NCBI GenBank assembly: GCA_964501355.1 | Contig: CAZCSM010000011.1 | Coordinates: 1 to 32,000 of the forward strand | DNA: 32,000 nucleotides | Direction: 5' to 3' | Source of the DNA: an uncultured Candidatus Saccharibacteria bacterium | GTDB taxonomy: Bacteria > Patescibacteriota > Dojkabacteria > CAZCSM01 | In this document: in pieces, positions 1,014-32,000 of the stretch | Layout of the letters: every line of letters starts with the position of its first letter | Position numbering within the stretch: position 1 is the first letter of the stretch | Program-made: the position numbers and the translations under genes | The notes under the pieces: model-generated | The model's input: only the letters and a program-made list of their open reading frames with translations | Databases searched by the model: none | Told to the model about the DNA's origin: nothing

Positions 1014-1032
1014 GGTATAAACAAAACCCATT

Positions 1033-1884: not shown

Positions 1885-1898
1885 TTCAAGATTCTCAG

Positions 1899-1948: not shown

Positions 1949-2009
1949 AGCGTAGCGGTTTTCATATATTCCGAGAAACCAGAATTCTTTATCTTCACAT
2001 CAATTTATT

Positions 2010-2711: not shown

Positions 2712-2720
2712 GAATTCTCT

Positions 2721-2854: not shown

Positions 2855-2990
2855 ATGATTCCATTTTTCACTTCTCTAACTTAACAACTACAACTTGCTA
2901 TCTTCTACAAAACATTAACCTGTTAAATCCAATACCTCAAACATACATGCCAAATATCACTAGTGGTTTATATGAATTAATTAATACTGA

Positions 2991-3016
2991 GATCCCGCAA
3001 TAAATGCGGGATGACA
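2991..3016 (-). repeat. GC-rich palindromic element (GTCAT-hairpin-ATC family), minus orientation
   Basis: The reverse complement reads ATGTCATCCCGCATTTATTGCGGGATC. It lies about 30 nt downstream of the minus-strand DUF3006 gene and could also act as its terminator hairpin. Confidence 0.6.
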
Positions 3017-3044
3017 TAAACACATCCGAGATGACTCTCTCCTT

Positions 3045-3278
3045 CTAATTCCTAAAAATCTTTTTCAACAATTCTCTCGCCTCATTTCGTCTATTTTCCG
3101 TTAACCTTCGCAATATCTGAAAAGTTTCCAAATCGACGACATCACCCTCTCGCAAATTACTTGGAAATAATGAGATCGGTTTAATCAGACTTTTATTTCC
3201 TATAACAATAACCACATTATTCCCTTCTATTCTATCGACTATTGCAGCATTCATAATTACACCTTGAATTAAAACCAT
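3045..3278 (-). CDS. DUF3006-like small protein
   Basis: AIVDRIEGNNVVIV ... LREGDVVDL followed by a basic helical tail, the pattern I associate with DUF3006. The ATG at 3254 (MNAAIVDRIEG) may be the true start. Confidence 0.6.
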   Translation of the reverse strand: MVLIQGVIMNAAIVDRIEGNNVVIVIGNKSLIKPISLFPSNLREGDVVDLETFQILRRLTENRRNEARELLKKIFRN

Positions 3279-3328
3279 TATATTGATAAATTGGTATTTG
3301 AGACTACATATATTATAACTGCAAGCTC

Positions 3329-4642: not shown

Positions 4643-4655
4643 TAATAAACAAAGA

Positions 4656-7600
4656 GTGAAGAACAAAGTCGACATTTTTACGGTAAACAGAAAAACGAAA
4701 GCACCCGAGAAGAGGGTCAACCATAATAAACAAATGTTTATGATGATTGGCTTATTGGGATTAGTGATTGCTATTCCTCTTCTCGTCTTTACACTTCTTC
4801 AACCGGAGGGTGCATTTGAAACTAGGAGAGAAGCTGCAGAAAGCACTCAATTCTATGGACTTCTCAAGCTAACTTCCGAAATACCGCTGCAAATGATCCC
4901 CGAAGGGTTCATCGGTGATGATTACTATTATTTTGCAAAAACAGATAAAAAGCCGGTAAACTTTGGCACCTCGGAACTTTCACCAAAATATTTAGTTGCA
5001 GCCAAAACAAACATCGATGACTTACTGCTAAATGCACACTACGATACATTATCCAGTTCGCAGACTTACTCTATCCAAAATGTAACGACAACCCCAATTA
5101 CGGGTTCTGCGACAACACAACTTATTGTAACCGATGAGGGTTCTCTAATTGAAGAAATCAGTAACCAAATTCCAGGCGTCTCCGCAGTAGGGACGTTGCC
5201 AACGGAAGTGAAAGCAGGACAACCATTCTCTCTCAATTATAGAATTGAAGATCAGAACTCAGCAAAAGGAGATCTTATTCAGAAGTATTCAGTCACTCGT
5301 GGGTATAAAGGAGGCGGTTTTGTCTCAGATGATAACTGGGACGTCACCACTACACCAAATTATCAAACGACGTTTAATGTGACATCCCCTCTTTCCGTGA
5401 CAATCGGAGGAACACCGCCGGAATCAGCTATCGGGAAAACATTGGAACTGGGGGTTGCAGGAGTAGAATTAATTGGGAGCTATGGTGAGAAAAAGATTGA
5501 AGTCGCGATTAAAGAGAATGCCGCACCGGAAATTCAGGATATTGTTTATTATGAAAATAATGGGATAAATCCAAACTCCGTAGAGCATGTTTATCGACTT
5601 ATTTATGGGACAAAGGATTCTGTTTCTGGAAAAGTTGAAGTCCTTGCGTCAGACTCGGACGATACAAATTTAACATATACATTTGGGACATTACCTACAA
5701 GATTTAAAAATGTAAGGACAGAAAATAACGCTATTCTCTTTGATATCAGTTGGGATAACTTTGATGGGACCGAAGTATTTGAGACGGAAGTAACAGTTAC
5801 AGATGGATACAAAAGCGTAAATAAGAAAATCCCAATTGCAGTAAGTAAAAAATATACTCTTCACGACCCTGCCCTTTGCCCACCGGTTCCAGGAGTAGTT
5901 TGTGAAGACTGGTCAGCAGATTTTAATTACACAGTAAAGACTAATTCATATCAAGTTACTTTTACACGACCTGATAATCTTATACCATCAAATAATAGCA
6001 TCGAAACATTCTGGTGGATATTTGATGACGGACTCGAAACATATGGGGACGAAACAGTAACACACACATATCCTCGCTCAGGTTCCTATGACGTAACATT
6101 AGTTATTATGGATTCTTCTGAGACAGGAGTATTCATGACAAAAAGCATTACAGTCAATCCAATTGGGAATTTAAAACCACCACAAGCATCCTTTATTGCA
6201 ATTCCGCAGGTTGGGAATGCACCACTTACAGTAAGAGTAAACCCGGAGGGTTCTTCAGATGCAGACGGAACAATTACAAAATACGAATGGAACTTTGGAG
6301 ATGGTCAGAGCCAGGAACATAATAGTGCGATAGCATTTGAACATACATTTAATACAGCAGGACTGTATACAATAACACTGACCGTTACTGATAACGATGG
6401 ACTAACAGCACAACAGACGTCGAAGATTACAGTTGGATCAAATACAGCACCCGTCGTATTCATCACGAAACCAAATCAGGGAACGTACGGAGGAACCGCA
6501 AGCAATCCTGGGAATAGGATAACGTGGTCGGTTGCTGATGCAGAAAATAACTCTCCCCTTCTCTATAATCTTTACTTGGTCAAATCACAAGCCGGAGGAA
6601 CATGTACTAGCGAAGCTACAAATACAGCACCAAACTATTTATTATCTTCAGGAAATATCAATTACTCCGCAGGACAATATCTTCCATCTGTATTTGAATG
6701 GGATACATCAACATCAAGATCCGGAAGCATTGTAGACGGGTATTATTGCGTAAAGATAAATGTAATTGATGACACATATGGTCAGCTTTCTGCTGATTAC
6801 TCTGACAACCCTATTGAAATAATCAATGCTCAACATACGCCATACGTTACAACAGAATATTTACCGGATGCGGTAAAAGATCAGTATTACTCCACGCAAG
6901 TTAACGCTTACGATGAAGACGGTGATTCCCTGACATTTGCACTTGGCAAAGGTCCGAACTGGGTTGAGGTTACAAATGCAGGAGAGATAAAAGGCACACC
7001 AAATGCAAGCGGACCTCAAACGATAATTATTACAGTTACAGATGGAAGAACTCGAACAATTAAAGTTTATACACTAAATGTGAAAGCTATCGAAGGACAG
7101 ATTCTACCAGCTGTAACGGTTGCGACAAATATTGAAGTATTCGTCGGAAGCACAGGAATAATCAACTGGACTATGGAAAATGGCGATGATGTATCAAGTC
7201 TGGACTTACAATATTCAACCGATGGAGAAAATTGGAACAACATAGCAAGCGGTTTATCGAAAGATATAAATGAATACAACTGGGATGTTTCAGAATTAGA
7301 GGCCGGAGTTTATCAAATACGAATCCTTTATTATGATTCAGAGGATAATACATTGGGTGCAAGCTCAGTCAAAGAGATCGAGATTGCACAACCTGAAGCA
7401 CAAAATGAAAGCGAGCCAATTGTATATGGGATGAAACCTACCGATGGAGAGAAAGTAACAGATAAGACACCAAAGATTTCTGCAAACTTTAAGGCAGGAT
7501 TTGGTAGTAAAGTTATGTTAGAAAGCGTAAGAGTTTACCTAGATAATAAACAAATTCAAAATAACGATGGATTTGAAGTATTTGATGGCGGATTCGCATA

Positions 7601-8063
7601 CATTGTTCCTGAAGAATTATCGGTCGGAGAACATACCGTAAAAGCAGGTTTTCTTGAAGAATCCGGAAAAACGGCTGAAGCTAAATGGTATTTTGAAGTC
7701 ATAGATGATAGTGCAGTAACAACCGAAGAACCAGAGGACAAAGGATTCAGTATTTACGCAATAGCTATTATTGTAATAATTGCATTATCTGTAATAACTG
7801 TTGCCGCATACTTTATTGTGAAATACATTGCAGAACCCAAAACTGCAAAGACCGCTTTTGTAAGAAGAGGCCCCATCACCCCTAGCCCATTCGAGGCACC
7901 GACCGAAGATAAAGCTGAAGAGAAAGTATTTCGCACAGCAAGAGCAACGTTAGAGAGAGATCACAAATTGAATATTAATCAACATGACGCCTTGCAAAAA
8001 CTGAAGGAAGTAGAAATCGTCCGAAAGGAAAAGGGAGAGCAAAATATCACCAAAGGATATTAA
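4656..8063 (+). CDS. Large bitopic surface protein with PKD and cadherin-like (putative Ig) repeats
   Basis: N-terminal TM. PKD-type repeats (FDDGLETYGDETVTHTYPRSGSYDVTLVIMD; WNFGDGQS..HTFNTAGLYTITLTVTDNDGL). Dystroglycan/cadherin-like repeat (YYSTQVNAYDEDGDSLTFALGKGPNWVEV..GTPN). C-terminal TM (IYAIAIIVIIALSVITVAAYFIV) plus a charged tail of about 80 aa. GTG start 13 nt after the SBP stop. Confidence 0.8.
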   Translation: MKNKVDIFTVNRKTKAPEKRVNHNKQMFMMIGLLGLVIAIPLLVFTLLQPEGAFETRREAAESTQFYGLLKLTSEIPLQMIPEGFIGDDYYYFAKTDKKPVNFGTSELSPKYLVAAKTNIDDLLLNAHYDTLSSSQTYSIQNVTTTPITGSATTQLIVTDEGSLIEEISNQIPGVSAVGTLPTEVKAGQPFSLNYRIEDQNSAKGDLIQKYSVTRGYKGGGFVSDDNWDVTTTPNYQTTFNVTSPLSVTIGGTPPESAIGKTLELGVAGVELIGSYGEKKIEVAIKENAAPEIQDIVYYENNGINPNSVEHVYRLIYGTKDSVSGKVEVLASDSDDTNLTYTFGTLPTRFKNVRTENNAILFDISWDNFDGTEVFETEVTVTDGYKSVNKKIPIAVSKKYTLHDPALCPPVPGVVCEDWSADFNYTVKTNSYQVTFTRPDNLIPSNNSIETFWWIFDDGLETYGDETVTHTYPRSGSYDVTLVIMDSSETGVFMTKSITVNPIGNLKPPQASFIAIPQVGNAPLTVRVNPEGSSDADGTITKYEWNFGDGQSQEHNSAIAFEHTFNTAGLYTITLTVTDNDGLTAQQTSKITVGSNTAPVVFITKPNQGTYGGTASNPGNRITWSVADAENNSPLLYNLYLVKSQAGGTCTSEATNTAPNYLLSSGNINYSAGQYLPSVFEWDTSTSRSGSIVDGYYCVKINVIDDTYGQLSADYSDNPIEIINAQHTPYVTTEYLPDAVKDQYYSTQVNAYDEDGDSLTFALGKGPNWVEVTNAGEIKGTPNASGPQTIIITVTDGRTRTIKVYTLNVKAIEGQILPAVTVATNIEVFVGSTGIINWTMENGDDVSSLDLQYSTDGENWNNIASGLSKDINEYNWDVSELEAGVYQIRILYYDSEDNTLGASSVKEIEIAQPEAQNESEPIVYGMKPTDGEKVTDKTPKISANFKAGFGSKVMLESVRVYLDNKQIQNNDGFEVFDGGFAYIVPEELSVGEHTVKAGFLEESGKTAEAKWYFEVIDDSAVTTEEPEDKGFSIYAIAIIVIIALSVITVAAYFIVKYIAEPKTAKTAFVRRGPITPSPFEAPTEDKAEEKVFRTARATLERDHKLNINQHDALQKLKEVEIVRKEKGEQNITKGY

Positions 8064-8199: not shown

Positions 8200-10416
8200 A
8201 TGAAAATCTACAATCTTAAAATTGCAAAGACTCGACGATTGTTCACGATCAGTATTGCAATATTATCCTGCATCTTTTTTTTCAGTAAAAATTTTCTTGA
8301 AAAGGCCTATGCACTAACAGAATCTTTTTCTCCCGCTGATTTAGTCATAGGTCAACCTGATATGATAAGTGGAACAGCGAATAATGGAGGAATCAGTGCT
8401 TCTAGTTTATCGTGGACCTACTCTGTTTTCAGTTATGGCGAAAATGTATATGTAGCAGATACAATGAACAGTAGAGTTTTAATATATAATGGAACACCAG
8501 GAGAAGATAATTGGGATAATGTAGCTGACTATGTGATAGGTCAACCTGATATGGTAAGTAATACTGGGAATAATGGAGGTGTAAGTGCTAGCAGTTTGTA
8601 TCAATCTTTTTCAGTTGCTACAGATGGAAGAAATGTTTATGTGGCGGACTTTATTAATAACAGAGTTTTAATTTATGATGGAATTCCAGGAGAAGAGGGC
8701 TGGGATAATGTCGCAGATTATGTTATTGGTCAACCTGATATGACCAGTGTTACTGCAAATAACGGGGGAAGAGGTGCTAGCAGTTTATATCGACCAACTT
8801 CGGTTGCCACAGACGGAGAGAGAGTCTATGTTGCAGATAACAATAACAATCGAGTATTGATTTATAATGGAATACCAGGAGAAGTAGGATGGGATAATGT
8901 AGCTGACTATGTGATAGGTCAACCTAATATGACCAGTGGTACTGGAAACAATGGAGGATTAAGTGCCAGTAGTTTATATCAACCAACTTCGGCAACCACA
9001 GATGGAGAGAGAGTTTATGTAGCAGATTATGTTAATAGTCGAGTGTTAATCTATGAGGGAATACCAGGAAAAGAGAGCTGGGATAATGTCGCAGACTATG
9101 TAATAGGTCAACCTGATATGACTAGTGGTACCTCTAATAACGGAGGGGTAAGTGCCAGTAGCTTGTTTTTCCCACGGTCAGTTAACACAGACAGAGAAAA
9201 AGTCTATGTGGTTGATAGCTATAACCATCGAATTTTGATCTACGAGGGGATACCAGGAGAGGTAGATTGGGATAACATCGCAGACTATGTAATAGGACAA
9301 TCTAATATGACAAGTAATACGAAAAACAATGGAGGTGTAAGTGCTAGTAGTTTATCTGAACCAACTTCGGTTACTACAGATGGAAGAAATATATATGTGG
9401 CAGAAAGGCTTAATTATCGTGTACTAATCTATTACATGGGTCCACAAAATATGAGTTTCACTTCAGTTTCTAGCTTAAGCAATAGCTTGACAGGAAACAC
9501 TTTTACTCTTGCAGGACGTGATGCAAAAGAGATGATGATATCTGAAGACAATGCTTTTGACGGAATCCCATGGGAAAGTTTTTCAACTTCAAAACTGTTT
9601 AGTCTTTCATCTGGAGATGGAATAAAGACTGTATATGCTAAGATGAGAGATTATGCTAATTATGAAGGAGAAGTACTATCAGCAACAATTACTGTAGATA
9701 CAACTAAACCAACAGGTACATTTTCAATCAATACAAATTCTACCTACACAAACACACCAGTTGTTACACTCACACTATCAGCAAGTGATAACCTCTCAGG
9801 AGTATCACAAATGATGATTTCAAACACTTCAGTTTTTACAGGAGCAAGTTGGGAAAACTATTCAGCAACTAAACAATGGACACTACCATCGGGAGATGGA
9901 GAGAAGAGCGTATATGTTAAGTTTAAAGATAACGCAGGAAATGAATCATTGGTTGTTAGCGATACTGTTATTCTAAAAACCGCTGCACTTCTAACACTAG
10001 ATCTGACTAATCTAAATTATCAACAAACACAGGAGAGATATACAAGAGCAGAAGGAGAACCGGTGATAGTAAGAGGAACAGCAGAACAGAGTACGGTGGT
10101 AACAATCACAGCATTAACGGAAGAAGGAGTAGTGGTTTACGAGACCCAATTAACAGTAGGAGAAGGTGGTAACTGGGAGATAGACTTAGGAGATGTTTTA
10201 GGAGTAGGAACATACCTAGTACAAATAACAACGACCGATCCGGCAGGGAACATAGCATCGAGTGAGTTTACTTTAGGTGTCGAAGCTGTTATAGAAGAAG
10301 TCGAAACTTTACCACAGACAGGAGAAGGAATTATAATTCCGTTTTTCCTAGGAATCTTCTTATTGTTGAAGCACTTTATGAAAAATAAAATGACTAAGCA
10401 ATATATTTTTCACTAG
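8200..10416 (+). CDS. Sortase-anchored six-bladed NHL-repeat beta-propeller surface protein
   Basis: N-terminal signal/TM. Six 63-aa repeats (ADYVIGQPDMTSGT.NNGG.SASSL..P.SV.TDG..VYVAD..N.RVLIY.GIPGE..WDN, including YNHRILIY). Two repeats of about 110 aa (SGDGxKxVYxK..D.AGNES type). C-terminal LPQTGE + hydrophobic segment + KHFMKNK tail. Confidence 0.85.
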   Translation: MKIYNLKIAKTRRLFTISIAILSCIFFFSKNFLEKAYALTESFSPADLVIGQPDMISGTANNGGISASSLSWTYSVFSYGENVYVADTMNSRVLIYNGTPGEDNWDNVADYVIGQPDMVSNTGNNGGVSASSLYQSFSVATDGRNVYVADFINNRVLIYDGIPGEEGWDNVADYVIGQPDMTSVTANNGGRGASSLYRPTSVATDGERVYVADNNNNRVLIYNGIPGEVGWDNVADYVIGQPNMTSGTGNNGGLSASSLYQPTSATTDGERVYVADYVNSRVLIYEGIPGKESWDNVADYVIGQPDMTSGTSNNGGVSASSLFFPRSVNTDREKVYVVDSYNHRILIYEGIPGEVDWDNIADYVIGQSNMTSNTKNNGGVSASSLSEPTSVTTDGRNIYVAERLNYRVLIYYMGPQNMSFTSVSSLSNSLTGNTFTLAGRDAKEMMISEDNAFDGIPWESFSTSKLFSLSSGDGIKTVYAKMRDYANYEGEVLSATITVDTTKPTGTFSINTNSTYTNTPVVTLTLSASDNLSGVSQMMISNTSVFTGASWENYSATKQWTLPSGDGEKSVYVKFKDNAGNESLVVSDTVILKTAALLTLDLTNLNYQQTQERYTRAEGEPVIVRGTAEQSTVVTITALTEEGVVVYETQLTVGEGGNWEIDLGDVLGVGTYLVQITTTDPAGNIASSEFTLGVEAVIEEVETLPQTGEGIIIPFFLGIFLLLKHFMKNKMTKQYIFH
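8335..9468 (+). repeat. Six tandem 189-bp coding repeats (NHL blades)
   Basis: The unit start GC(T/A)GA(C/T)T(A/T)(T/A)GT(G/A/C/T)ATAGGTCAACCTGATATG recurs at 8335, 8524, 8713, 8902, 9091 and 9280, an exact 189-nt period. Confidence 0.9.
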
Positions 10417-10777: not shown

Positions 10778-12559
10778 ATGGATTACAAAATAATTAGACA
10801 AAAATATCTGGACTACCTCAAGAAACGAGGACATTCGGAAATTGTCAACGCATCACTTGTTCCGGAAAATGATCCAACAATTCTTTTCACACCAGCAGGA
10901 ATGTCTCCAATTGTCCCCTATCTTCTTGGCGAAAAACACCCGCAAGGTACACGACTCGTAAATATTCAAAGATCGATTCGAACCGGAGATATTGAAGAAG
11001 TCGGAGATGCAGTTCATCTTACTTTTTTTGAAATGGCAGGAAACTGGTCGTTGAATGACTATTTTAAGGAAGAAGCCATCGACATTACTTTCACATTCTT
11101 GGTTGAGGAACTAGGACTTGATCCGCTTAAACTTTATGGCTCTGTTTTCGAGGGTGATAATGATGCGCCAAGAGATGATGGTGCTATCGAGTCGTTAAAA
11201 AAAGTGTTTACAAAATTCGGAGTTGAAGCAAAGGCGGGAGATAGAGAACGAATCCAGTTTTTTGACAAAGCAAAATGTTGGTGGGAGCTTCCGGCAGGAG
11301 GACCATGCGGACCATGTTCCGAGATTTTTTATGATACGGGGAAAGATTATTGTGGAGAGAACTGTAATGTAAATTGCGATTGCGGAAAATTCGTCGAACT
11401 TGGGAACAATGTATTTATGGAATTTTTAAAGAAAGGCCCGGGACAATATGAACCGCTTGGAAAACACAATGTGGACTTCGGTGGTGGAATTGCTCGTTGG
11501 GCAGTATTTATGCAGGGAGTTGATAATGTATTTGATACGGATATCTACATTCCGATCAAAAAGAAAGTTGTAGAATTAGCTCAGGAACAGAGTGAAAAAT
11601 CAGTTCGAATAGTAACTGAACATATTAATACCGCAGTATTTATTCTAATGGATGGTGTTGTTCCCTCGAATACCGAGCAAGGCTACATCTTACGCAGAAT
11701 AATCAGACGAGCAATTCGACATGCAAAACAACTCGGCATCCCTACTCCATTTGCAAAAGAAGTCGCAGAAGTTGTAATAAAACAATGGAATGATCTTTAT
11801 CCGGAACTTGAAGAAAGAAAAGAGTTTATTCTTAATGAATTGGAAAAAGAAGAAGAGAAATTCGCAAAGACAGTTGAACAAGGAGAGAAAGAAATTCGCA
11901 AAGAAAACATTGAACAGCTTGATGGAAAGAGAATATTCTATTTTTACGAAACATATGGCTATCCATTTGAATTATCATTAGAAATCTTGAAAGAAACAGG
12001 CTCGGTTGATGAAGAAAAGCTTCAAAAAGAATTTGACGAAGCTTTCAAATCACATCAGGAGTTATCTCGAGCAGGACAAGGAGAGAGATTCAAAGGCGGA
12101 CTTGCTGATACATCAGAAGCTTCGACAAAATATCATACAGCAACACACTTGTTAAACGCGGCATTGAAAGAAATCGTCGGAGAACACATCTACCAAAAAG
12201 GAAGTAATATTACACCAGAGAGAATGAGGTTTGATTTTCCAAATGATTCGAAACTAACACCGGAACAAGTGAAAGAAGTTGAAGATTGGGTAAATGATAA
12301 AATCGAAAAAGAACTCTCTGTTAGCGTTAAGGAAATGACACTTGATGAGGCAAAGGAACTAAAATCCGAAGGTGTATTCGGACACAGATACGGAGAAAAA
12401 GTGAAAGTATATACAGTTGGAGATGAAGAGAATCCTACGTCACGAGAAATCTGCGGAGGACCACACGTTGCAAATACAAAAGAACTAGGAAAGTTCAAAA
12501 TTGTAAAACAGGAAAATGTCGGCGCAGGAGTAAAGAGAATCAAGGCTATATTGGAATAA
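10778..12559 (+). CDS. alaS: Alanine--tRNA ligase, short form lacking the C-Ala domain
   Basis: Class II AlaRS motifs DPTILFTPAGM, HLTFFEMAGNWS, GGPCGPCSEIFYD and GNNVFMEF. Editing-domain motifs HTATHLLNAALKE and CGGPHV. The protein ends right after the editing domain (593 aa). Confidence 0.92.
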   Translation: MDYKIIRQKYLDYLKKRGHSEIVNASLVPENDPTILFTPAGMSPIVPYLLGEKHPQGTRLVNIQRSIRTGDIEEVGDAVHLTFFEMAGNWSLNDYFKEEAIDITFTFLVEELGLDPLKLYGSVFEGDNDAPRDDGAIESLKKVFTKFGVEAKAGDRERIQFFDKAKCWWELPAGGPCGPCSEIFYDTGKDYCGENCNVNCDCGKFVELGNNVFMEFLKKGPGQYEPLGKHNVDFGGGIARWAVFMQGVDNVFDTDIYIPIKKKVVELAQEQSEKSVRIVTEHINTAVFILMDGVVPSNTEQGYILRRIIRRAIRHAKQLGIPTPFAKEVAEVVIKQWNDLYPELEERKEFILNELEKEEEKFAKTVEQGEKEIRKENIEQLDGKRIFYFYETYGYPFELSLEILKETGSVDEEKLQKEFDEAFKSHQELSRAGQGERFKGGLADTSEASTKYHTATHLLNAALKEIVGEHIYQKGSNITPERMRFDFPNDSKLTPEQVKEVEDWVNDKIEKELSVSVKEMTLDEAKELKSEGVFGHRYGEKVKVYTVGDEENPTSREICGGPHVANTKELGKFKIVKQENVGAGVKRIKAILE

Positions 12560-15694: not shown

Positions 15695-18600
15695 ATGAAA
15701 CCAAATCGCAAAAGAATCGTCACCGCAGTAGTATTCGCAGTAACGCTAGTACTAGGAGCAAGCGCACTTGCACTTGCATGGAGACTGCAACAGGAAAAAG
15801 CAACCTATGAGGAAGCAGAAGCAGGAAGTTGCGGAGATAATGCATCTTGTCCAGCTGACTACCCAATATCGGCAGAAACAACAAGCTGCTCATGCCATGG
15901 AGATTGCGTTAAATGTGCCAGGGTGTGTTGTAAAGATAATGGTAGTGGAGGATGTGATAGATCACAAACAACAACAGTCTGGCCTGCTGGAATCCAGGAT
16001 TGTCAGGCCGATGGAAAATACTGCGAAGGCGGAAGTTGCAAGACTCATGATCAAGGATGTACCTGGCCAAACGATTGTGAAACCGTAAGTTCAGGCTCGA
16101 CAACAAGTCATTGGATTAAATGGTATTGTTTTGGATGGACTTGTAGTACAGAAGATTGCTATAACCGATGTCAATTAGGTTCGAATCTTCAAGCAACTCA
16201 AACAAATATGGCAAATGCCGGAGTAGGCAATGACACCTTAGAATACCCCGAAGTGTGTTATGATAGACAAGTTGATTATTATAACAATGATGCACCTCCT
16301 GCAAATCCAGGAAATTTTGCAGGAGCAAGATTATATTCAGCTGAATATGCAATTGGACAAGGACCCTGTACAAATGTCGTTACCCGAACACTTTCTGGTG
16401 AAGTCTATTGTCAAGACGTTGGTGGAACGAAAATGCCAATTGCAAGTGCAAACATGACTATTATAAGAAACACACTTGGAAATACAACTACGACAACAAG
16501 TGCTACGGGTGCATATAGTTCAGACCTAACAGGAGAAACAGGATTTGCTTCAAGATTAACATCACTTCCAACGGGAAATCTGCCAAACGGACAACCATAT
16601 GCATCAATGGTCGGACCAACCCTTGTCCCGAAGAGCTATTGCACCGTTAACACATCCTATGAGATGTGTAGCGCGACTGCTGCAACAAATCATACTGGAT
16701 TTGACTTCGCTTATACAAATTGTACACCAACCCCAAATCCAACAATAACTTGTACAAGTAAAAGTTCAGACAGAGACTCAAGCGGAATAAGTATTGGACA
16801 GTCCATAACGTACACCGTTAGCTATACAATAACCGAACAAAATCTTAAAACTCTGCAATTTACTGATAACCACTCTCCGGCAGGAATACTTTCTGCAACA
16901 GTTGCAGAGATTACTCCTGGCCTGGTTTGCGAAGATGTCGTAGCAGGACAGTTTAGCTGCACAATGAACGGTACAGATGCTGCCGCACAGGCCCTCAGAT
17001 CAGTCGGATCACATCAAGTGGCGTTTGTTGTTAACGTGAATCAAGCAAGAGTAATGGAGGTTGATCAGATTACAAATAACATTTATGAATTCAACGGTAC
17101 ATGGGGAGACAATAATACTGCAGTAACTGGAAACACGACTGCTTGTACAGATACCGTGAATGTAGAGATTAATCCTGAAGCCGTTTGTACAGGCAAGAGC
17201 ATAACTCCGACAGGATTGATTGACCCAGGACAAAATGTAACATTTACGATCAATTATTCAAACTCTGGAGATGTTGATGGAAACATCTTGATTACGGATG
17301 TGGTACCAAATGGTTTTGAGAACGTTGCAACCACGACATCAGGATGCACAGCATCTGGAAATACCGTGAATTGCGTCATTGGAACAATATCACAATCTTC
17401 CGGAACCGTGACAATAACAGCAAAGGCGAAGAGTAATGTCAGAGATCTTGAAACAAACAATACAGCAACGGTGAGAATAGATATCAACGGAGATGGTACA
17501 CCTGACGATACAGCACCAAATGCTACAGAAATAGCGACATGTTCTACAGAACCGACGCCATCAGTGGCAGGAGTTATGTGTGTTAGCAAAGATGCTTCTG
17601 CAGGATACGAAGAATCAGAACCGATTCAACCAGGAGACACCCTTACCTACACGGTTAACTACACTGTCGAAAGAGGACCCGCAACTGTAATTATTACAGA
17701 AGATATTCCTGAACACTTGGAAGTAATAGAAGCAACACTACCAACAGGATGTGAATTAAGAGAAACTGATACGGTACTATATTGTGAAATCGTAGAGACA
17801 GATGTTGGTGATTACACGAATTCAATCAGTTTTGATGCTACGGTAAAAACAGACATCGGAATTGATGGTGCAACAATTACAAATGAAATATTTGTATATG
17901 AAAGAGGAGAAGAGAAGCCATCAACGAATCCTGACGATTGTGATGAAACAATTTATGTAGAGCACGAAGCTCCTGCCTGTGTACTTACAACTCCAAGTGT
18001 AATGACTATCAGAGTTGCAGATCTTGCAGGTACAAGCATCAGCTTAACTACAACAGGTGACATTGGTACACATTCTGACCTCGACTTCTTATGGACAGCA
18101 ACCGGAGGAACATTATCAAGCACAACATGGCATGCATCTTCCGGAACACCAGCAAATGGACAAGTCGCGGATGTTGTAACTTGGGCACCTCCTACAGATG
18201 CAGAAGATACAGATACTTTTGATATTAAAGTATATGTCAGACCGGCAGGTAGCACAGATGAGACAGGTGTAAGCGATGATGCTTGCGAATCAACAGCCAC
18301 AATTACCGCTCTCGACCTAATCTGTAACTGGTTGGTTCCAAATGATGAATATGAATTCTTCCCATTTGACATGACATTCGCAGCTGATATCGGTGGAGAT
18401 CAAGGGGCAGCATTCACATACGATCTTAACTATGGTGATGGATCAACCCACTACACCGGAAGTGGAACAGTAGCTGCAGGAACAACAGTTGAACTACCAT
18501 ATGTTCCTCCACAAGACGAACCACATACATACGACAGCGATACACCAGTTGATTACGCTCCAGTACTTACTGTAACGAATACAGAAACAGGAGAGACAAG

Positions 18601-19261
18601 CGTATGTCCTACAGTTCTTGGTGGTCGCACACAATCTGAGTGGACAATCGTTAAAGACTCTGATGTCGATACTTGTGTTGCGGTTAACACAACAGCTACC
18701 TACTCTATCGTTGTAACAAACACAGGTGACTATACAGCAGACCTTGCACAAGTTAGAGATACAATTGATTCAAAGATTGATACTACAACTATTGCAAATA
18801 TTAGAGAGTGTGATTCAAATGGTTTGAACTGCACAACTTACAACAGAACAGATGTAGTAAGCGGCAGAACAATCACATGGCCAGGTAGAACATATACTGC
18901 AGGAGAATCTAGAAAGTATATGTACACCGTAACTGTAAATACTGCTGGTGATTATTATAATGTAGCTGAAGCAATCCCAGAAACAGGAGCAACAGTTAGA
19001 GATGACGAAGTATTCCCAACGTGTGCTGGCAAGACACCAGTAGCACCTGAGACAGGAGCACTATCAACAACAGCATACATCGCAATACTTGGAATGCTGA
19101 TTGTCGCAGGAAGTTACTATGCTTACAATACCAAAGCAGGAGCACAGATTGTTGCAAATGTTATGGGAAAGACTGGTAGATCTGTTCGAAGAAGTCTTAA
19201 TCGTAAGGAGACATTCGAAAGAGATGCTATTAGATCTGAGAAGGATAAGTTAAGAGGATAA
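15695..19261 (+). CDS. Large surface protein: Cys-rich N-terminal module, DUF11-type repeats, C-terminal APETG sorting-like signal
   Basis: Signal/TM (VTAVVFAVTLVLGASALALA). Dense cysteines over roughly aa 40-230. DUF11-like repeats (GQSITYTVSYT, GQNVTFTINYSNSGDVDGNILITDVVP, GDTLTYTVNYTVERG, TATYSIVVTNTGDY). APETG + TM (ALSTTAYIAILGMLIVAGSYYAY) + basic tail of about 44 aa. Confidence 0.85.
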   Translation: MKPNRKRIVTAVVFAVTLVLGASALALAWRLQQEKATYEEAEAGSCGDNASCPADYPISAETTSCSCHGDCVKCARVCCKDNGSGGCDRSQTTTVWPAGIQDCQADGKYCEGGSCKTHDQGCTWPNDCETVSSGSTTSHWIKWYCFGWTCSTEDCYNRCQLGSNLQATQTNMANAGVGNDTLEYPEVCYDRQVDYYNNDAPPANPGNFAGARLYSAEYAIGQGPCTNVVTRTLSGEVYCQDVGGTKMPIASANMTIIRNTLGNTTTTTSATGAYSSDLTGETGFASRLTSLPTGNLPNGQPYASMVGPTLVPKSYCTVNTSYEMCSATAATNHTGFDFAYTNCTPTPNPTITCTSKSSDRDSSGISIGQSITYTVSYTITEQNLKTLQFTDNHSPAGILSATVAEITPGLVCEDVVAGQFSCTMNGTDAAAQALRSVGSHQVAFVVNVNQARVMEVDQITNNIYEFNGTWGDNNTAVTGNTTACTDTVNVEINPEAVCTGKSITPTGLIDPGQNVTFTINYSNSGDVDGNILITDVVPNGFENVATTTSGCTASGNTVNCVIGTISQSSGTVTITAKAKSNVRDLETNNTATVRIDINGDGTPDDTAPNATEIATCSTEPTPSVAGVMCVSKDASAGYEESEPIQPGDTLTYTVNYTVERGPATVIITEDIPEHLEVIEATLPTGCELRETDTVLYCEIVETDVGDYTNSISFDATVKTDIGIDGATITNEIFVYERGEEKPSTNPDDCDETIYVEHEAPACVLTTPSVMTIRVADLAGTSISLTTTGDIGTHSDLDFLWTATGGTLSSTTWHASSGTPANGQVADVVTWAPPTDAEDTDTFDIKVYVRPAGSTDETGVSDDACESTATITALDLICNWLVPNDEYEFFPFDMTFAADIGGDQGAAFTYDLNYGDGSTHYTGSGTVAAGTTVELPYVPPQDEPHTYDSDTPVDYAPVLTVTNTETGETSVCPTVLGGRTQSEWTIVKDSDVDTCVAVNTTATYSIVVTNTGDYTADLAQVRDTIDSKIDTTTIANIRECDSNGLNCTTYNRTDVVSGRTITWPGRTYTAGESRKYMYTVTVNTAGDYYNVAEAIPETGATVRDDEVFPTCAGKTPVAPETGALSTTAYIAILGMLIVAGSYYAYNTKAGAQIVANVMGKTGRSVRRSLNRKETFERDAIRSEKDKLRG

Positions 19262-26709: not shown

Positions 26710-27180
26710 CTATTCATTGAGAAATACTAGATTGGGACTAGAGGTTAAGCAGCCTTGCTTTCGAACAAAATCATATGCGGCCGCACCTTTTTTGGCAGTA
26801 ATTTCTCCATAGATTTCAACGTAGACGATTCCGTCTTTTTCGTAAACTTGAAAATCTTTATTGATTGTTGATTGCTCTAAAGAACAATCGGGCTGTACAT
26901 TTAAATCCTCTTCAGCATAATCATCTATTTCAATCACTTCAGTAACTTCAGATGAAGATGTTTCGATACAATTCAGACAGGTCTCTTCGCTTGCAGAAGT
27001 ACCGAGACTTTCTCCGGAATTTACTTCCTGTTCGCTTTCAATGTAAGTTTGAATATTTTCGACAGAAGAGCTCACCTCTGACACCTTGGGAGGAAATAAT
27101 GCAACCGGAGAGAAGAGAAATAGTACAGATATAACTGTAAACAAGAGAAAAACTTTTAGAGCTTTTAACCAAATCTTCAT
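26710..27180 (-). CDS. Small secreted or anchored hypothetical protein (last gene of the glycosidase operon)
   Basis: N-terminal hydrophobic segment (VFLLFTVISVLFLFSPVALF), an acidic Ser/Glu-rich linker, and a C-terminal globular part of about 60 aa containing cysteines. 23-nt gap from the upstream gene. Confidence 0.6.
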   Translation of the reverse strand: MKIWLKALKVFLLFTVISVLFLFSPVALFPPKVSEVSSSVENIQTYIESEQEVNSGESLGTSASEETCLNCIETSSSEVTEVIEIDDYAEEDLNVQPDCSLEQSTINKDFQVYEKDGIVYVEIYGEITAKKGAAAYDFVRKQGCLTSSPNLVFLNE

Positions 27181-27203: not shown

Positions 27204-27965
27204 TTATTGTTCCGTTTTTTCAAGAGAACTCACAACCTCTTTTAGGACCTGTTTATACAGGTCCCATTTTTGCAGGGCTTCAAATGTTGTAAATTTATAC
27301 GATATTACCACGCCACTCGAAGCGACAGGATAATCCTCTTTAACAGATTGAAAAACATTCAACGATGAGTGTAACCCTTCTCCAAATTCTTCCGAAGAGT
27401 ATCTTTGATAAACATAATAGTCTTTATTCAACTGAATAGAACCGGATTCTAAACGAAATTCTTTTGTATCATATGAAGTCGCCCCCGTTTTGCTTACATA
27501 TAGAGAAGCACCATCTGTAATCGAAAGAATCTCAAAATCATCCATCAAGTAATCGTCTGCGACAAGCCTCATGCCATCACCAATTATTGCATCGTCATCA
27601 AATGCAGCAAGTGCTTGATCAGAGAGTCGTTCATATGTCACATTATACTCAAACCCTCCGTCGTCAGATTCACTTAGGAAATATTCATATTCACGAGTAT
27701 CATCGGAGTAATCCTCCTGAACTGCAGTCCAAGTACTTGGGTACTCTACTTTAACATTGTAGGAAGGGTCCTCTGTTGCCTTATACAAGCCGTCTTCTTT
27801 TCCATCAAGAAGCTTCTGCTCTTCTTCCGTATAGTCGACCTTTGATTCCGGCTCATCTTCAGGAATCTCTGGGCTTCTATTAATAACGGAGACAATTATC
27901 AATCCAAAAATTAATACAACACCAACTATCAATAGTATTCTTTTGTTATTTTTTATAAATTCCAT
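27204..27965 (-). CDS. Membrane-anchored extracytoplasmic hypothetical protein (possibly a PsbP/DcrB-like fold)
   Basis: N-terminal TM (ILLIVGVVLIFGLIIVSVI), acidic linker, and a beta-rich body with a YPSTWTAVQ-type motif. Starts 13 nt after the giant glycosidase stop. The fold call is weak. Confidence 0.6.
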   Translation of the reverse strand: MEFIKNNKRILLIVGVVLIFGLIIVSVINRSPEIPEDEPESKVDYTEEEQKLLDGKEDGLYKATEDPSYNVKVEYPSTWTAVQEDYSDDTREYEYFLSESDDGGFEYNVTYERLSDQALAAFDDDAIIGDGMRLVADDYLMDDFEILSITDGASLYVSKTGATSYDTKEFRLESGSIQLNKDYYVYQRYSSEEFGEGLHSSLNVFQSVKEDYPVASSGVVISYKFTTFEALQKWDLYKQVLKEVVSSLEKTEQ

Positions 27966-27978: not shown

Positions 27979-30900
27979 TTAATTGAGGGTATATGTATCA
28001 TAATCCTCCATAACAGTACCATGTCGATAACTGTAAGCAATTCCGGCAACATGCTCACCAACCGTCTCATAGTCATTACAGTCAGATCTTGAACAGACAT
28101 GTGTAGTATCTCCATTAATTATCTTTCGAGAATCAATATATGCTTCTACAGAATCGGAATAACTAGGTTTTAATGCAGCACCTGTAAAGGAGCCAGCTTG
28201 CATTCCAAAGGTAATTATTTCTGCAGCAGCATCCGGATCCATCGCTAATTCAGGATGAGTCAACAAAGACAATCCAAGGTGATCCCCCATTCTCTGATAA
28301 TTTCCTTTCCATGTAAGCTGTACATATCCTCTACCATAATAACACTTGTTCGTTATTGGATCGCAAGTTCCATATGACTGTTGAAAATCTGCTGTACAGC
28401 CACAAGGATCCTGAGCATCAGATTTGCAACGAGATTCATCATAATCTCTATCACAACAGCCGTACTCTTCCTTTGGCTGAACACTAGATTCAAAATTTGC
28501 AGTTGCCAGAACGTAAGCGCATTGATCTTGCCCCAACCCGTGCTTATTACAATATTTCATAATTGATATTTCATTATCGGTAGGAGTGCGATTATATCCT
28601 TCCGGAGCAGCTTCGCCCGGATCTTTCGGCGTTGTAGAGCCTCCACCTGTTTCAATTTTCACGCCATCTCTTATATAGGCAATTTCCTCAACGGAATATT
28701 CTGCAGGAGCTATGAAATTAGCAAAGCTCTTTGCGTACTTCTCCGGTAAATTCTGAATGATATAGATATCAAGCGCAGAGTAAACTTTATTGTAAGGGTG
28801 ATTAACCTCAGAATCTGTTCTGTCCATGCACATAGGTGCTTCAGATGTATCATCAGGACTTTTCGAACTTCCCGTTTCAAGTCTTTGTGCAATATATGGC
28901 ATTGCACCAAGTCCCGGCATATAGAATGTCATCTCTTCTGTGAAAAGCAAGCTGCTCTCACCCTCACTTCCAACCTGTAACTCACACACTTGTTGAGGAG
29001 GATTATAGAAACGACATTCATCACCACCACCAGAACGTGGAGGAGCTTCTGGAATCTCAACATTTTCAGTAATTGCAGAACCCGATGGGATAAGACATAC
29101 GTTATCCCAATAATCATCTGTATTATTGGCAGCATATGCTGCAGAACTTCGAAGAATAACTGTAACAGTACCTCCTCGACTTTTCACTGTTTCTGAATAC
29201 CATTCGTTCAAGAATGCAGCACTATTAATCTTTTTACAGGAACCATCTTTTCTAACGGTATCCATCATGTCATCATAGTCTTGCATTGGGATTTCTTGTT
29301 TATCCCCAATCAGGTCATGAATATTTCCATAATAAAGGCATATTTCTGCCTCAGACTCTCCAACCCAACCAATATCGGACTGAACACAACCTGAAGAGTT
29401 TCGAAATTCGCCATCACCCTCATCTGTATTTCGCCAACCTTGGAAATAACCCGATAGGGAATAACCTGGAGGCACATTATCTACAACCTGATATGCGATT
29501 ACATCATGTTTATTTTGCCAAGTGAACCACTTGCTTGCCAATCTTCCATCAAGGACCCTCCGTTGATCATTCACTCCATATATTGGCTGGAATTCAGGCG
29601 CTTTACAATATTCCAGATTCTCACCATTTGTTCCAGCACAACTCGGCGATTGATCACCTGGGTCACCAGGACTATAATTTTTCTTCCAGATGAATGTCCA
29701 TCCAGGAGCAGCAGCACCATCGGCTGTACCGCCCGGGGCCCCACCCCAGGCTGCCTCAAAACTACCATTCTGTAATAGGTTTTGAGGACCAATACCGGTA
29801 CCGCCATGGTCACATGTATCATAGGATTGACCGGTTGCTGTTCCATATTTGTCATACCAGGACACATCAACGGTAACTTCAGCACCATATAGCTCGTTAT
29901 CAGGGGTATCACAAACCGTACCACGTGCATTTATCACATCCCAAACTCTATATTGTGCCATAATTGGAACAAATGGGGCATAAAGCTCAAGCTCAGCCAA
30001 ATCATTTTGCTGAACTCCAGCAATTTTCATCTTTGTTTTTCCATTACCTCGACATCTTGAAGCTAACGCTCCAATTGTCTTAACAGCTTCTTCAGCTTTT
30101 GATTGAGCATCTTTATATCCAGAACATTTCGATGTATCGGAAGGTTGACATAAAGGATCACTTGGAGGAAGAGTACCGTCTGTACAGTCTAAAAGTATAG
30201 GAGTGGTCCTACCACAATTAGAATTAACAGCACTTTGATACCATGGAAGAATCCTATTATTATAATCCTCAACTAACTCCTCTAAAGCGGCACAACTACC
30301 ATCATAATCAAAGTCACCAATCTCCACACCGGCTTCACCAGAAGCTTTTGCCCTAGTATAGGCCTTACCCATTGTTAATCCACCTGGTACACTTGTAAAA
30401 GCAGGATTAGAATCAACGCCATCATCCAACCACCCCAATATTCCAAGCCAAAACTTTGCCCATTTGGATTCTAAAAAGGACGGGAAATACGTTAATGATG
30501 CAGATTGATCGTCAAATGTTCCCGTAAACGCACTACCCTCCTCATCTTGAAAATCAGGAGCTTGCATCCAGTTGGCATAAATATTATATGGATCCTCAGC
30601 CGAAACGGTCCCGAGTGCTGTACCCAAAGGGAAGTACACATAATCTCTTTTGCTTATTGTTTGGTGAAACAGATGATCCGCATACATGGTACGTGAATCA
30701 AAATCCGTCCCCCAACCACACTGATCCATTCCATAATTGTCATTGGTTTGAAATGGCCAATATTCTTTAGGTATTCCTAATGCGGCAGCGGCCTGGTTAT
30801 GTGAATTTTGATTCATACAACCTTCATCCATCCAGCTTTCTACTCGAGGAGTTGCCTTGTGATAATACCTACCATCCGCAGGATAACCAGCAATCACATT

Positions 30901-32000
30901 ATAATTGACATCCCACGCCAAGGTTTTGTCTGTTGCAGCTGCGGTAGACATATTTCCCACATCAGTATTATTCTCTATATTGAGATTTTGTAAGAATGCT
31001 GTTGTAGAAACATCCTTAACTGTCATCAAAGCATATGCACCGCCGATACCATCTTCAAGTTGTATTTCTCCTGTACCGGAATATTCCTGAGGTTTCGGAA
31101 TCAGCGGAGTTAAGACATCAGAAATACAACGAGCACCAGTTGAAGCCCCGCCACCTGCTGAAGCCATTGGCTCATACTCCGATCGATCAACTATTGTACA
31201 AGAAGAAAAGTCTGTGTAACGAATTTCCATATGAGCCCATTCTGAACAGGTGCTAACACGCTCATCTGTAACAACAGCAGCATCTTCTTTTGTAAAAGAA
31301 AAATTACCATACCCCGTTCCATCAATTGTGTTCATACTACACCCACCACCATTAGCAGAGTTCCAACAAGGATCTGGATTATTACCAGCTGCATTAAAAA
31401 AGTTCACTGCAGCTACGCCTGTATCACCGCAATAAATATCCCAATAGTCATTCATGAACTGTCCTGCTGTCATACCAGTCCCTTGCACCGGAACGTCTTC
31501 ATGAGGCCCAGTTTCAATGATGTACACAGGTAAACTATAACCAAATGCACCCAGTTCATCTTTATACAATGTTGAAGAAAGCCCCGCAACAGGATAAGGA
31601 TTAGAGGCATGGCCATCTATCTTTCCCTTCCAATTAGCAGTATTCCCCATTTGTGCAATAAAATCTGTCCAACAAACGTAAGCGTCATTACCAGGGCACG
31701 GAGCAGAAGTATTCAATGGTGATCCAATAATTTTGGCGTCAGGACCAACACCAGGACGAATCGCATCTGCTGTATCGGCTAAGTACTTAGCATAGTAAGA
31801 ACCAGAGTTTGGAAACCCTTCAGAAAACTCAAATTTAAAATTGACCTCGTTCCCGATAGAGATTACTAATTTACCATCATTACCCCCAATCTGGCTGAAG
31901 AAAGTCCCCCACTCAGCCGCAGAAGGCCCGGCATCTAAACGTAGAATTGGTGTCAAGCAATATTGTTTTGCAGAATCAATGAATGATTTAGTGGCATCCA
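27979..32000 (-). CDS. Giant multidomain glycosidase (5' end outside window): clan-A-like TIM-barrel motifs, CBM4/9-like module, C-terminal GH19 chitinase/lysozyme domain
   Basis: The frame stays open to the window edge (upstream of the TTG at 31956 it reads ..DATKSFIDSAKQYC). SIGNEVNF and YIIETGP lie about 112 aa apart, fitting clan GH-A acid/base and nucleophile motifs. NGSFE...DDYWDNVCL (about 29089-29784) looks like CBM4/9. The last 198 aa (27982-28575) align by eye to GH19: LATANFES, PKEEYGCC, CYYGRGYVQLTWKGNY, LLTHPELAMDPDAAAEII, KIINGD. Confidence 0.8.
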   Translation of the reverse strand, partial: DATKSFIDSAKQYCLTPILRLDAGPSAAEWGTFFSQIGGNDGKLVISIGNEVNFKFEFSEGFPNSGSYYAKYLADTADAIRPGVGPDAKIIGSPLNTSAPCPGNDAYVCWTDFIAQMGNTANWKGKIDGHASNPYPVAGLSSTLYKDELGAFGYSLPVYIIETGPHEDVPVQGTGMTAGQFMNDYWDIYCGDTGVAAVNFFNAAGNNPDPCWNSANGGGCSMNTIDGTGYGNFSFTKEDAAVVTDERVSTCSEWAHMEIRYTDFSSCTIVDRSEYEPMASAGGGASTGARCISDVLTPLIPKPQEYSGTGEIQLEDGIGGAYALMTVKDVSTTAFLQNLNIENNTDVGNMSTAAATDKTLAWDVNYNVIAGYPADGRYYHKATPRVESWMDEGCMNQNSHNQAAAALGIPKEYWPFQTNDNYGMDQCGWGTDFDSRTMYADHLFHQTISKRDYVYFPLGTALGTVSAEDPYNIYANWMQAPDFQDEEGSAFTGTFDDQSASLTYFPSFLESKWAKFWLGILGWLDDGVDSNPAFTSVPGGLTMGKAYTRAKASGEAGVEIGDFDYDGSCAALEELVEDYNNRILPWYQSAVNSNCGRTTPILLDCTDGTLPPSDPLCQPSDTSKCSGYKDAQSKAEEAVKTIGALASRCRGNGKTKMKIAGVQQNDLAELELYAPFVPIMAQYRVWDVINARGTVCDTPDNELYGAEVTVDVSWYDKYGTATGQSYDTCDHGGTGIGPQNLLQNGSFEAAWGGAPGGTADGAAAPGWTFIWKKNYSPGDPGDQSPSCAGTNGENLEYCKAPEFQPIYGVNDQRRVLDGRLASKWFTWQNKHDVIAYQVVDNVPPGYSLSGYFQGWRNTDEGDGEFRNSSGCVQSDIGWVGESEAEICLYYGNIHDLIGDKQEIPMQDYDDMMDTVRKDGSCKKINSAAFLNEWYSETVKSRGGTVTVILRSSAAYAANNTDDYWDNVCLIPSGSAITENVEIPEAPPRSGGGDECRFYNPPQQVCELQVGSEGESSLLFTEEMTFYMPGLGAMPYIAQRLETGSSKSPDDTSEAPMCMDRTDSEVNHPYNKVYSALDIYIIQNLPEKYAKSFANFIAPAEYSVEEIAYIRDGVKIETGGGSTTPKDPGEAAPEGYNRTPTDNEISIMKYCNKHGLGQDQCAYVLATANFESSVQPKEEYGCCDRDYDESRCKSDAQDPCGCTADFQQSYGTCDPITNKCYYGRGYVQLTWKGNYQRMGDHLGLSLLTHPELAMDPDAAAEIITFGMQAGSFTGAALKPSYSDSVEAYIDSRKIINGDTTHVCSRSDCNDYETVGEHVAGIAYSYRHGTVMEDYDTYTLN

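Follow-up and report, generated by a model that had tools for sequence, protein, structure and literature searches.

PrgK, the wall hydrolase of plasmid pCF10's type IV secretion system (T4SS), is anchored by a transmembrane segment and exposes three extracellular hydrolase-like domains, one of which is an active muramidase while two are inactive; its partner PrgL, to which it binds, is encoded by the gene that follows (PMC11323569). The T4SSs of Patescibacteria typically have a PrgI-TrsD-VirB4 core, and in a 2025 survey VirB1 homologues rarely adjoined virB4, other glycosidases being suggested to fill the VirB1 role (PMC12102498). Ca. Southlakia epibionticum ML1, one of the Saccharibacteria, has homologues of a peptidase and a lysozyme directly downstream of virB4 that are essential when it grows as an epibiont (PMC12102498), and for such growth the few Patescibacteria in cultivation require T4SS genes (PMC10633639). 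Here we describe a gene for a giant multi-domain protein at the end of a 32,000-nucleotide stretch of DNA from an uncultured Candidatus Saccharibacteria bacterium (assembly GCA_964501355.1, contig CAZCSM010000011.1, positions 1 to 32,000; this whole stretch is the window). Our results suggested that the giant is most likely a wall or glycan hydrolase associated with a T4SS, and that its set of domains is unprecedented. The fuller reading, which we favour as probable while leaving real room for others, is that of a membrane-anchored, extracytoplasmic multi-domain glycan hydrolase belonging to a Patescibacteria-type T4SS operon, and an analogue of the VirB1-type PrgK/TraG proteins.

The giant gene and its product

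The gene lies on the minus strand (27979..>32000). Translation gave 1,339 codons without a stop over 27979-31998, with the TAA at 27979-27981, and the reading frame runs off the window edge; the complete product, P0001, was recovered by database search and has 1,448 amino acids (aa). A preliminary description of this DNA had proposed a single polypeptide of more than 1340 aa with three modules. This was borne out, all three modules being supported, and every motif quoted there is found in P0001; taken as a whole, what had been observed is confirmed, while its interpretation is partly supported. The main features, all on the minus strand, are as follows (CBM, carbohydrate-binding module).

27979..32000, minus strand: 3' part of the giant gene, 4,022 nt, P0001 residues 110-1448 plus the stop; about 327 nt of the 5' end lie beyond the window
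31276..32000, minus strand: D1, predicted clan-GH-A-like (β/α)8 barrel, P0001 58-350, of which only 110-350 are inside the window
31846-31848, minus strand: E160, candidate acid/base, in GNEVN
31513-31515, minus strand: E271, candidate nucleophile, in IIETG
29080..29781, minus strand: D5, predicted CBM-like β-jelly-roll, P0001 849-1082, edges NGSFE and DDYWDNVCL
27982..28590, minus strand: GH19 domain, P0001 1246-1448
28489-28491, 28465-28467 and 28312-28314, minus strand: GH19 candidate catalytic residues E1279, E1287 and T1338 (water-holding)
28342..28461, minus strand: Cys-rich stretch of the GH19 domain, P0001 1289-1328, 7 Cys

In P0001 numbering, GNEVN stands at 158, IIETG at 269, NGSFE at 853 and DDYWDNVCL at 1070; towards the C-terminus follow NFES at 1277, PKEEYG at 1284 and CYYGRGYVQLTWKGNY at 1328.

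Hydropathy analysis of P0001 revealed one hydrophobic segment only (residues 18-43), and the family keeps an invariant short tail, PEIRxLTxPKW, at the N-terminus. Since the hydrophobic segment is single, the remainder of the protein is predicted to be extracytoplasmic, and the giant to be membrane-anchored with an N-terminal cytoplasmic tail, in agreement with the extracellular location that had been proposed for it. P0001 has 39 Cys (2.7% of the 1,448 aa, and 2.9% of the part inside the window); in most other secreted proteins of the window the figure is about 0.3%.

That the reading frame could be an assembly chimera had been raised as a concern, and this was rejected because the same module order is repeated in six independent contigs (L001, L002, L003, L004, L005 and L008; L001 and L002 come from two sequencing runs). 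The gene is indeed richer in guanine plus cytosine (GC) than its surroundings, as had been judged by eye, with 42.2% vs 38.3% in the remaining window. However, the horizontal origin that composition and codon usage might have revealed was rejected: the excess is confined to codon positions 1 and 2 (0.516 and 0.462), third-position GC is 0.289 in a neighbourhood where genes span 0.256-0.388, and the codon-usage divergence (0.048) is similar to that of other long genes. The raised GC is shared with the gene for a DUF11 giant in the same window. The composition of the gene gives no sign of recent transfer. A phage or prophage origin of the locus was also rejected, the neighbours being housekeeping genes in conserved synteny.

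Relatives of the giant

When 5.8 billion protein clusters were searched by word index, just two relatives were returned, P0002 (1,398 aa) and P0003 (1,210 aa). Moreover, an exhaustive hidden Markov model (HMM) search with residues 58-1245 against 1.84 billion representatives gave three proteins below 1e-30: P0003, P0004, which is a fragment, and P0005 (1,133 aa). A further relative, with 61% identity, is present in the JGI contig L004, and none was found in species-representative genomes scanned with the giant-protein and the VirB4 alignments. P0002, which carries the GH19 domain, and P0003, which does not, are sisters with 55% identity. Judged from these searches, which yielded about five lineages, the family is very rare, and its importance would lie in the principle that it illustrates, not in its spread.

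Position of the giant next to virB4

In support of a link with a T4SS, the genes upstream of the giant, on the same strand, encode TatD, PrgI (VirB3; PF12666), a TraC/TrsD-like protein and the motor protein VirB4 in L001/L002 and L003, while the order in L004 is TatD, PrgI, a 236-aa protein, VirB4 and the giant. In these three lineages the giant orthologue (37-61% identity) lies 44-65 nt downstream of VirB4, on the same strand, and in L005 the upstream fragment encodes KIVSTNPGEA, a motif of the VirB4 C-terminus. Every lineage with upstream sequence keeps the giant at +1 after virB4, despite a protein identity of 35-61%. The window is syntenic with L001/L002 and L003 in its LeuRS, MurJ and holA genes, the DUF11 giant and a 200-aa gene (203-aa there), and its 253-aa and 156-aa genes are the orthologues of those in L001. 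Because of this synteny, the T4SS genes of the window lineage should lie just past position 32000.

The conserved position bears on another explanation, in which the giant is a free-standing nutritional or environmental glycosidase, chitinase plus glucanase, serving polysaccharide uptake, and the proximity to the T4SS is incidental. The combination of a GH5-like module, a CBM and a GH19 domain is typical of polysaccharide degraders, the window encodes a sugar-type solute-binding protein (3329-4642), and one D1-type homologue, P0148, has no T4SS genes within ~5 kb. Against this stand the +1 position, held in spite of such sequence divergence, and the conserved cytoplasmic tail and transmembrane segment, which point to an anchored protein, not a released one. 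With the GH19 and D5 results given below also taken into account, we consider a nutritional role very unlikely.

Two side observations concern the same loci. The VirB4 proteins of this lineage (L001 7420-9939; L003 7401-9935; L004 2121-4925) end, beyond the ATPase domain, in a Pro/Glu/Ser-rich low-complexity tail of 200-300 residues, which differs between lineages. Just upstream of the T4SS block, L001 (3360-3935, minus strand) and L002 (398-973, minus strand) carry a thioredoxin/DsbA-like gene (weak Pfam matches), whose product could take part in disulfide formation in Cys-rich exported proteins.

D1 resembles the barrels of clan GH-A

GNEVN and IIETG, about 112 aa apart, had been proposed as the catalytic pair of a clan GH-A barrel, and this proposal held up: E160 and E271 are separated by 111 residues and occupy the canonical positions of a modelled barrel. 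In an 11-sequence alignment, whose distant members are only 24-30% identical to D1, the invariant residues are the Asn-Glu in GNEVN and the Glu in IIETG together with one Tyr and one Asp, and an Arg is nearly invariant. The AlphaFold2 model built on this alignment (predicted local distance difference test, pLDDT, 79; predicted template-modelling score, pTM, 0.83) has eight β/α units, with the Asn-Glu right after strand 4 (N102-E103 after strand 97-100, in model numbering) and the second Glu inside strand 7 (E214 in strand 210-215). Clan GH-A is defined by this geometry, Asn-Glu after β4 together with a Glu at β7.

Foldseek comparison of the model with the PDB returned GH5, GH53, GH30, GH35, GH1 and GH128 enzymes (E = 4e-6 to 5e-4), with template-modelling (TM) scores of 0.5-0.6 and an identity of just 9-16%; the top 50 matches were mostly from clan-A families, with a few entries from outside the clan, e.g. 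1tml. At the sequence level, the D1 profile matched the GH5 endoglucanase 3pzt (3.4e-6), placing NEvN over NEPN and IIETG over VTEWG, so that the D1 Glu pair aligns with the GH5 motifs. The sole informative name from the cluster look-ups, 'cellulase family glycosylhydrolase' (NCBI), belongs to the D1 homologue P0035. D1 thus shares with GH5 and other clan GH-A enzymes the eight-stranded barrel, the Asn-Glu after β4, the Glu at the β7 end and the conserved Arg (β2) and Tyr (β6). Unlike them, it has at most 16% identity to any solved structure, and no Pfam or NCBIfam model, including that of GH5 (PF00150, 'Cellulase'), matched D1 in the giant or in seven distant homologues. Our model supports the assignment of D1 at the level of clan GH-A, not at that of a family.

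A second locus also connects this barrel type with secretion genes. In L007 (positions 254-5473; NCBI GCA_964442895.1) four tandem VirB2-like pilin genes are followed by P0066, a protein of 720 aa with a D1-type GH5-like barrel distantly homologous to D1, and then by a 499-aa polytopic membrane protein. Standing next to VirB2-like pilin genes, P0066 strengthens the association of the barrel with T4SSs by a second, independent link.

The GH19 domain resembles phage endolysins

The preliminary description had placed a GH19 domain at the C-terminus, with candidate glutamates in NFES and PKEEYG, and both are conserved, as E1279 and E1287. The domain scored 25.4 bits against Pfam PF00182 (cut-off 25.5) and matched PHROG 181, 'endolysin', at 4e-16. 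In the PDB, solved GH19 structures matched over a ~55-residue core, the best being ChiG (3.7e-9). In the large database the domain comes closest to proteins of ~180-200 aa that consist of one domain only, at an identity of 44% over ~70% of the query (E = 1e-25); some of these small relatives carry PG_binding_1, and metagenomic PF00182 proteins are among the matches. Moreover, a tblastn search of 50,697 phage records matched 316, nearly all annotated as endolysin and mostly from Acinetobacter phages, with 37-39% identity over 75-79% of the domain (E about 1e-21).

The alignment with 13 small GH19 proteins (alignment A7) shows no variation in the two Glu or in YYGRG, QLT and NY, and E1279, E1287 and T1338 all stand in invariant columns; the two Glu are 8 residues apart. 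In described GH19 endolysins the triad is E49/E58/T130, with a Glu spacing of 9, whereas in chitinases it is E69/E87/S120, with a spacing of 18; the water-holding residue is Thr in endolysins and Ser in chitinases, and a Cys pair in loop 3 (C97/C105, chitinase numbering) is a signature of the chitinase subfamily (PMC8547705).

As to the Cys-rich stretch, described earlier as an insert with eight Cys, we counted seven. Its first ~25 residues form an insertion in loop 3, between EEYG with the second Glu and the YG.PDP segment with YYGRG. The insertion is absent from the small relatives in A7 and is lineage-specific. Two of the inserted Cys fall, in a HMMER alignment, over the loop-3 Cys pair of the Streptomyces chitinase ChiG. 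A second insertion, with 2 Cys, is seen in A7 near the GH19 C-terminus in the window lineage, and the position equivalent to G118 of ELYS, the endolysin subfamily in the GH19 Engineering Database, is Gly in P0002 and Asn in the window protein (hand count from A7). In its E/E/T triad and in the identity network, where a link of at least ~40% marks this subfamily, the domain fits ELYS.

The giant's domain therefore compares with two groups of enzymes. With the GH19 endolysins (Acinetobacter phage LysAB2/PlyAB1 type; SPN1S, PDB 4ok7) it shares 37-44% identity over most of its length, the Glu...Glu...Thr triad, the short Glu-Glu spacing and the YYGRGYVQLTWKxNY core. Unlike these enzymes, which stand alone, it is fused C-terminally to a 1,250-residue surface protein and contains the loop-3 insertion. 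With the GH19 chitinases (loopless ChiG/ChiC; plant class I/II) it has in common the core motif and the ChiG match, and two Cys may correspond to the loop-3 pair; it differs from them in having Thr in place of Ser, no loop II and a Glu spacing of 8 vs 18, and the similarity is limited to the core, whereas with endolysin-type proteins the alignment covers 75-80% of the domain.

A plant-type GH19, as had been suggested from the Cys-rich loop, was rejected: there is no loop II (spacing 8 vs ~18-22), the water-holding residue is Thr, and the nearest relatives are small (~185-aa) bacterial and phage proteins. Because its closest relatives are bacterial and phage proteins and it has the E/E/T triad and the short Glu spacing, we classify the domain, on sequence grounds, as endolysin-like, not plant-like, with a mixed loop signature; what stands of the earlier suggestion is that the Cys pair is chitinase-like by the ChiG alignment. 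Peptidoglycan is the more likely substrate, and chitin a less likely one. The chitinase-like Cys pair in loop 3 is a further point for the nutritional explanation given above; the nearest relatives, endolysins and not chitinases, argue against it.

D5 and the remaining modules

D5 had been described as a CBM4/9-like jelly roll, which is right for the fold and not for the family. The AlphaFold2 model (25-sequence alignment; pLDDT 84, pTM 0.85) is a β-sandwich, and Foldseek gave the CBM61 structure 2xom as the best match (1.2e-6, TM 0.74 on the target), with CBM70, CBM4-2, CBM11 and CBM16 also among the matches. On the other hand, Pfam, including the CBM4/CBM9 model PF02018, gave no match to the module in the giant or in 53 scanned D5-bearing proteins, and the D5 profile found no CBM among PDB sequences. 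Compared with CBM61, CBM4 and CBM70, D5 shares the β-sandwich (TM 0.63-0.75 normalised to the CBM), an N-terminal N-G-x-F-E strand and a C-terminal D-x-Y-W-D strand. It differs in lacking a sequence-family match and, in the giants, in a family-specific insertion of ~60 residues that contains a helix. The model thus makes D5 CBM4/9-like in fold, and carbohydrate binding is predicted.

Nearly all of the ~250 weaker matches of the exhaustive HMM search are due to D5. The 53 scanned proteins carry LysM in 17 cases, SdrD_B in 11 and SH3_3 in 2; this pairing with LysM and SH3, both peptidoglycan-binding, also speaks against a nutritional role. The D5 family (P0006-P0152 among the matches) comprises ~250 clusters, is undescribed, is not modelled by Pfam and has the consensus NLL.N..FE ... 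GIDPTGGTDP ... KHNDxYWDD; its members are often tandem duplicates, with frequent fusion to LysM, SdrD_B or SH3_3. Two families not modelled by Pfam are revealed by this locus, namely the T4SS-adjacent GH5-like barrel and the LysM-pairing jelly roll.

The rest of the protein consists of three further modules:

30226..31275, minus strand: D2, P0001 351-700, family-conserved, with YPADG and YFPLGTALG motifs
29782..30225, minus strand: D3, P0001 701-848, a Cys-rich linker (7 Cys), then a short conserved segment, APFVPI...VSWYDK
28591..29079, minus strand: D6, P0001 1083-1245, conserved, with TFYMPGLG and SALDIYI.NL motifs

D2 had no match in Pfam, NCBIfam or PDB sequences, and neither did the profile of residues 58-1245 in PDB sequences. 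In the relatives that have no GH19 the protein terminates after D6.

These modules, which amount to ~660 conserved and unassigned residues, suggest together with the 39 Cys a rigid, disulfide-braced stalk. The giant could accordingly be mainly an adhesin or structural surface component of the T4SS, whose enzyme-like domains bind glycans without catalysis. Two of the three PrgK 'hydrolase' domains are inactive (PMC11323569), and GH19 is dispensable in two lineages. However, the catalytic residues of both enzyme modules are strictly conserved, in the family and in distant homologues, which would be unexpected for degenerate, binding-only domains, and we hold this explanation to be highly improbable.

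Proposed role and comparison with known T4SS hydrolases

The modules suggest the following sequence of events for a hydrolase acting at the T4SS. The conserved cytoplasmic tail (PEIRxLTxPKW) and the single transmembrane helix would hold the giant at the T4SS, and the jelly-roll module would dock on wall glycan outside the membrane. There D1, as a GH5-like retaining barrel with E160 as acid/base and E271 as nucleophile, would cut glycosidic bonds, while the endolysin-type GH19 domain (E1279, E1287 and T1338), most likely a muramidase, would cut peptidoglycan independently of D1. These cuts would make a gap in the wall, be it that of the cell itself or that of the host at the contact site, and let the secretion channel or pilus pass. 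The substrates, the choice between own and host wall and the physical coupling to the T4SS are proposed here, while the analysis shows the identity of the domains as to fold and family, the conserved catalytic residues, the topology by hydropathy and the place in the operon at orthologous loci. The wall-remodelling or offensive role put forward earlier for this protein is plausible.

PrgK would be the closest functional counterpart of the giant; it is not a homologue, because no PrgK domain is present in the giant. The pCF10 gene order, prgI-prgJ-prgK, likewise puts the hydrolase directly after virB4. Like PrgK, TraG (pIP501) and CD419/TrsG, which serve monoderm (MPF-FATA) T4SSs as VirB1-type hydrolases, the giant has an N-terminal anchor, several extracellular modules with one muramidase (predicted in the giant), a position after virB4 and small bitopic proteins encoded next. 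It departs from these proteins in that SLT/GH23, CHAP and LytM are replaced by a GH5-like barrel together with a CBM of jelly-roll type and GH19; it is also Cys-rich, exceeds them in size by a factor of 1.5 to 2, and shows no sequence homology to them. The S. epibionticum homologues are alike in their position relative to virB4 and in belonging to a Patescibacteria-clade T4SS without relaxase and with PrgI and TrsD (PMC12102498; PMC10633639); they differ in being separate genes with other domains, as far as their description allows the comparison, whereas the giant is a single fusion. As to a described counterpart, of which the preliminary description knew none, the domain set is unprecedented, but in concept the PrgK/TraG-type proteins and the S. 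epibionticum homologues are counterparts.

Several points weigh against this role. The T4SS genes are not seen inside the window, the link being made through orthologous loci and synteny, and SLT/GH23, CHAP and LytM, by which known T4SS hydrolases are defined, were not found in the giant by Pfam. GH5-like barrels usually act on β-glucans or mannans, not on peptidoglycan. Since P0003 and P0005 have no GH19, the muramidase is not an indispensable part. The chitinase-like Cys pair in loop 3 of GH19 and the unexplained D2, D3 and D6 modules belong on the same side. If a hydrolase of the T4SS is nevertheless the right reading, the locus offers a concrete candidate for the VirB1-type partner that is usually missing beside virB4 in Patescibacteria, an anchored +1 protein in which two different glycosidase modules, both seemingly intact, are combined with a module for glycan binding.

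The genes downstream of the giant

Two small genes follow the giant:

27204..27965, minus strand: 253-aa protein, bitopic, strongly acidic (52 D/E vs 23 K/R); orthologues in L001 (14194-14970) and L008 (2261-2917; 49% identity)
26710..27180, minus strand: 156-aa protein, bitopic, 4 Cys, last gene of the operon, C-terminal GC..(S/D)..NL motif conserved; orthologues in L001 (15002-15496), L003 (13635-14120) and L005 (4069-4512)

The 253-aa gene starts 13 nt past the giant's stop in the window and overlaps it by 4 nt in L001. Both this gene and GH19 are present in three of three lineages (the window, L001/L002 and L008), and both are absent from L003 and L005 (P0003 and P0005), where the 156-aa gene follows the giant directly. 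The sequences thus indicate that GH19 and the 253-aa gene were gained or lost together, in at least two events, because the sisters P0002 and P0003 differ and P0005 has to be added. The 156-aa gene closes the operon in all five lineages. This pattern of presence and absence is a natural experiment.

Such a pattern would also fit a weapon directed at a host or competitor, in which D1 to D6 form a delivery scaffold, GH19 is a swappable lytic toxin and the 253-aa protein is an immunity protein or inhibitor guarding the cell's own peptidoglycan. Polymorphic toxins are a precedent for an arrangement of this kind. In support of it, GH19 and the 253-aa gene come and go together, repeatedly, while the 156-aa gene is retained throughout; the bitopic 253-aa protein exposes an ectodomain that is very acidic, its gene overlaps or abuts the giant's stop, and the organism makes its own peptidoglycan (MurJ, MltG and sortase). 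In addition, a report on Brucella describes a T4SS autolysin with a dedicated inhibitor, the SagA/PhiA pair (PMC8334348). However, GH19 and the 253-aa gene are adjacent, and one indel explains both without a functional link; moreover, there are five lineages only, with a single type of 'toxin' seen. No homology of the 253-aa protein to a known inhibitor was detected, and it could be a PrgL/VirB8-like structural partner. We regard the weapon as unlikely on this evidence, and the 253-aa protein may serve either in inhibition or immunity or as a partner similar to PrgL. For the 156-aa protein, which had no family match, a VirB8/PrgL-like role is our guess.

A bolder proposal, to which we give only a minor chance, joins both ideas: D1 would represent an undescribed glycosidase family recruited by Patescibacteria-type T4SSs in place of VirB1, after virB4 here and within the VirB2 pilin array of L007, and GH19 with the 253-aa protein would be the toxin-immunity cassette of a host-directed weapon. 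If true, it would give direct access, at the molecular level, to the way in which ultrasmall epibionts get through the wall of their host.

Other features of the window

Besides the giant operon, the window encodes a sortase, an M48 peptidase, the solute-binding protein, PKD and NHL surface proteins, a short alanyl-tRNA synthetase, RuvX, MltG, the DUF11 giant, holA, MurJ, a methyltransferase and LeuRS. An Rfam scan of the whole window found no RNA family, PADLOC gave no match to the giant, 253-aa and 156-aa proteins, and a promoter and terminator scan returned nothing above shuffled expectation.

The DUF11/CLIPPER-repeat surface protein (15695-19261, plus strand) has 1,188 aa with 44 Cys (3.7%), and its gene has a GC content of 42.3%, raised through the first two codon positions. 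In L001 and L003 it is found in synteny, and Cys-rich extracellular giants seem to be a feature of the organism. The sortase gene (1033-1884, plus strand) is near the genes for two surface proteins (4656-8063 and 8200-10416, plus strand), one with PKD/Big_9 and the other with NHL repeats and Big_13, which suggests a sortase-anchored repertoire. Finally, the alanyl-tRNA synthetase (10778-12559, plus strand; 593 aa) consists of the catalytic and SAD domains without the long C-terminal extension, which fits a reduced genome.

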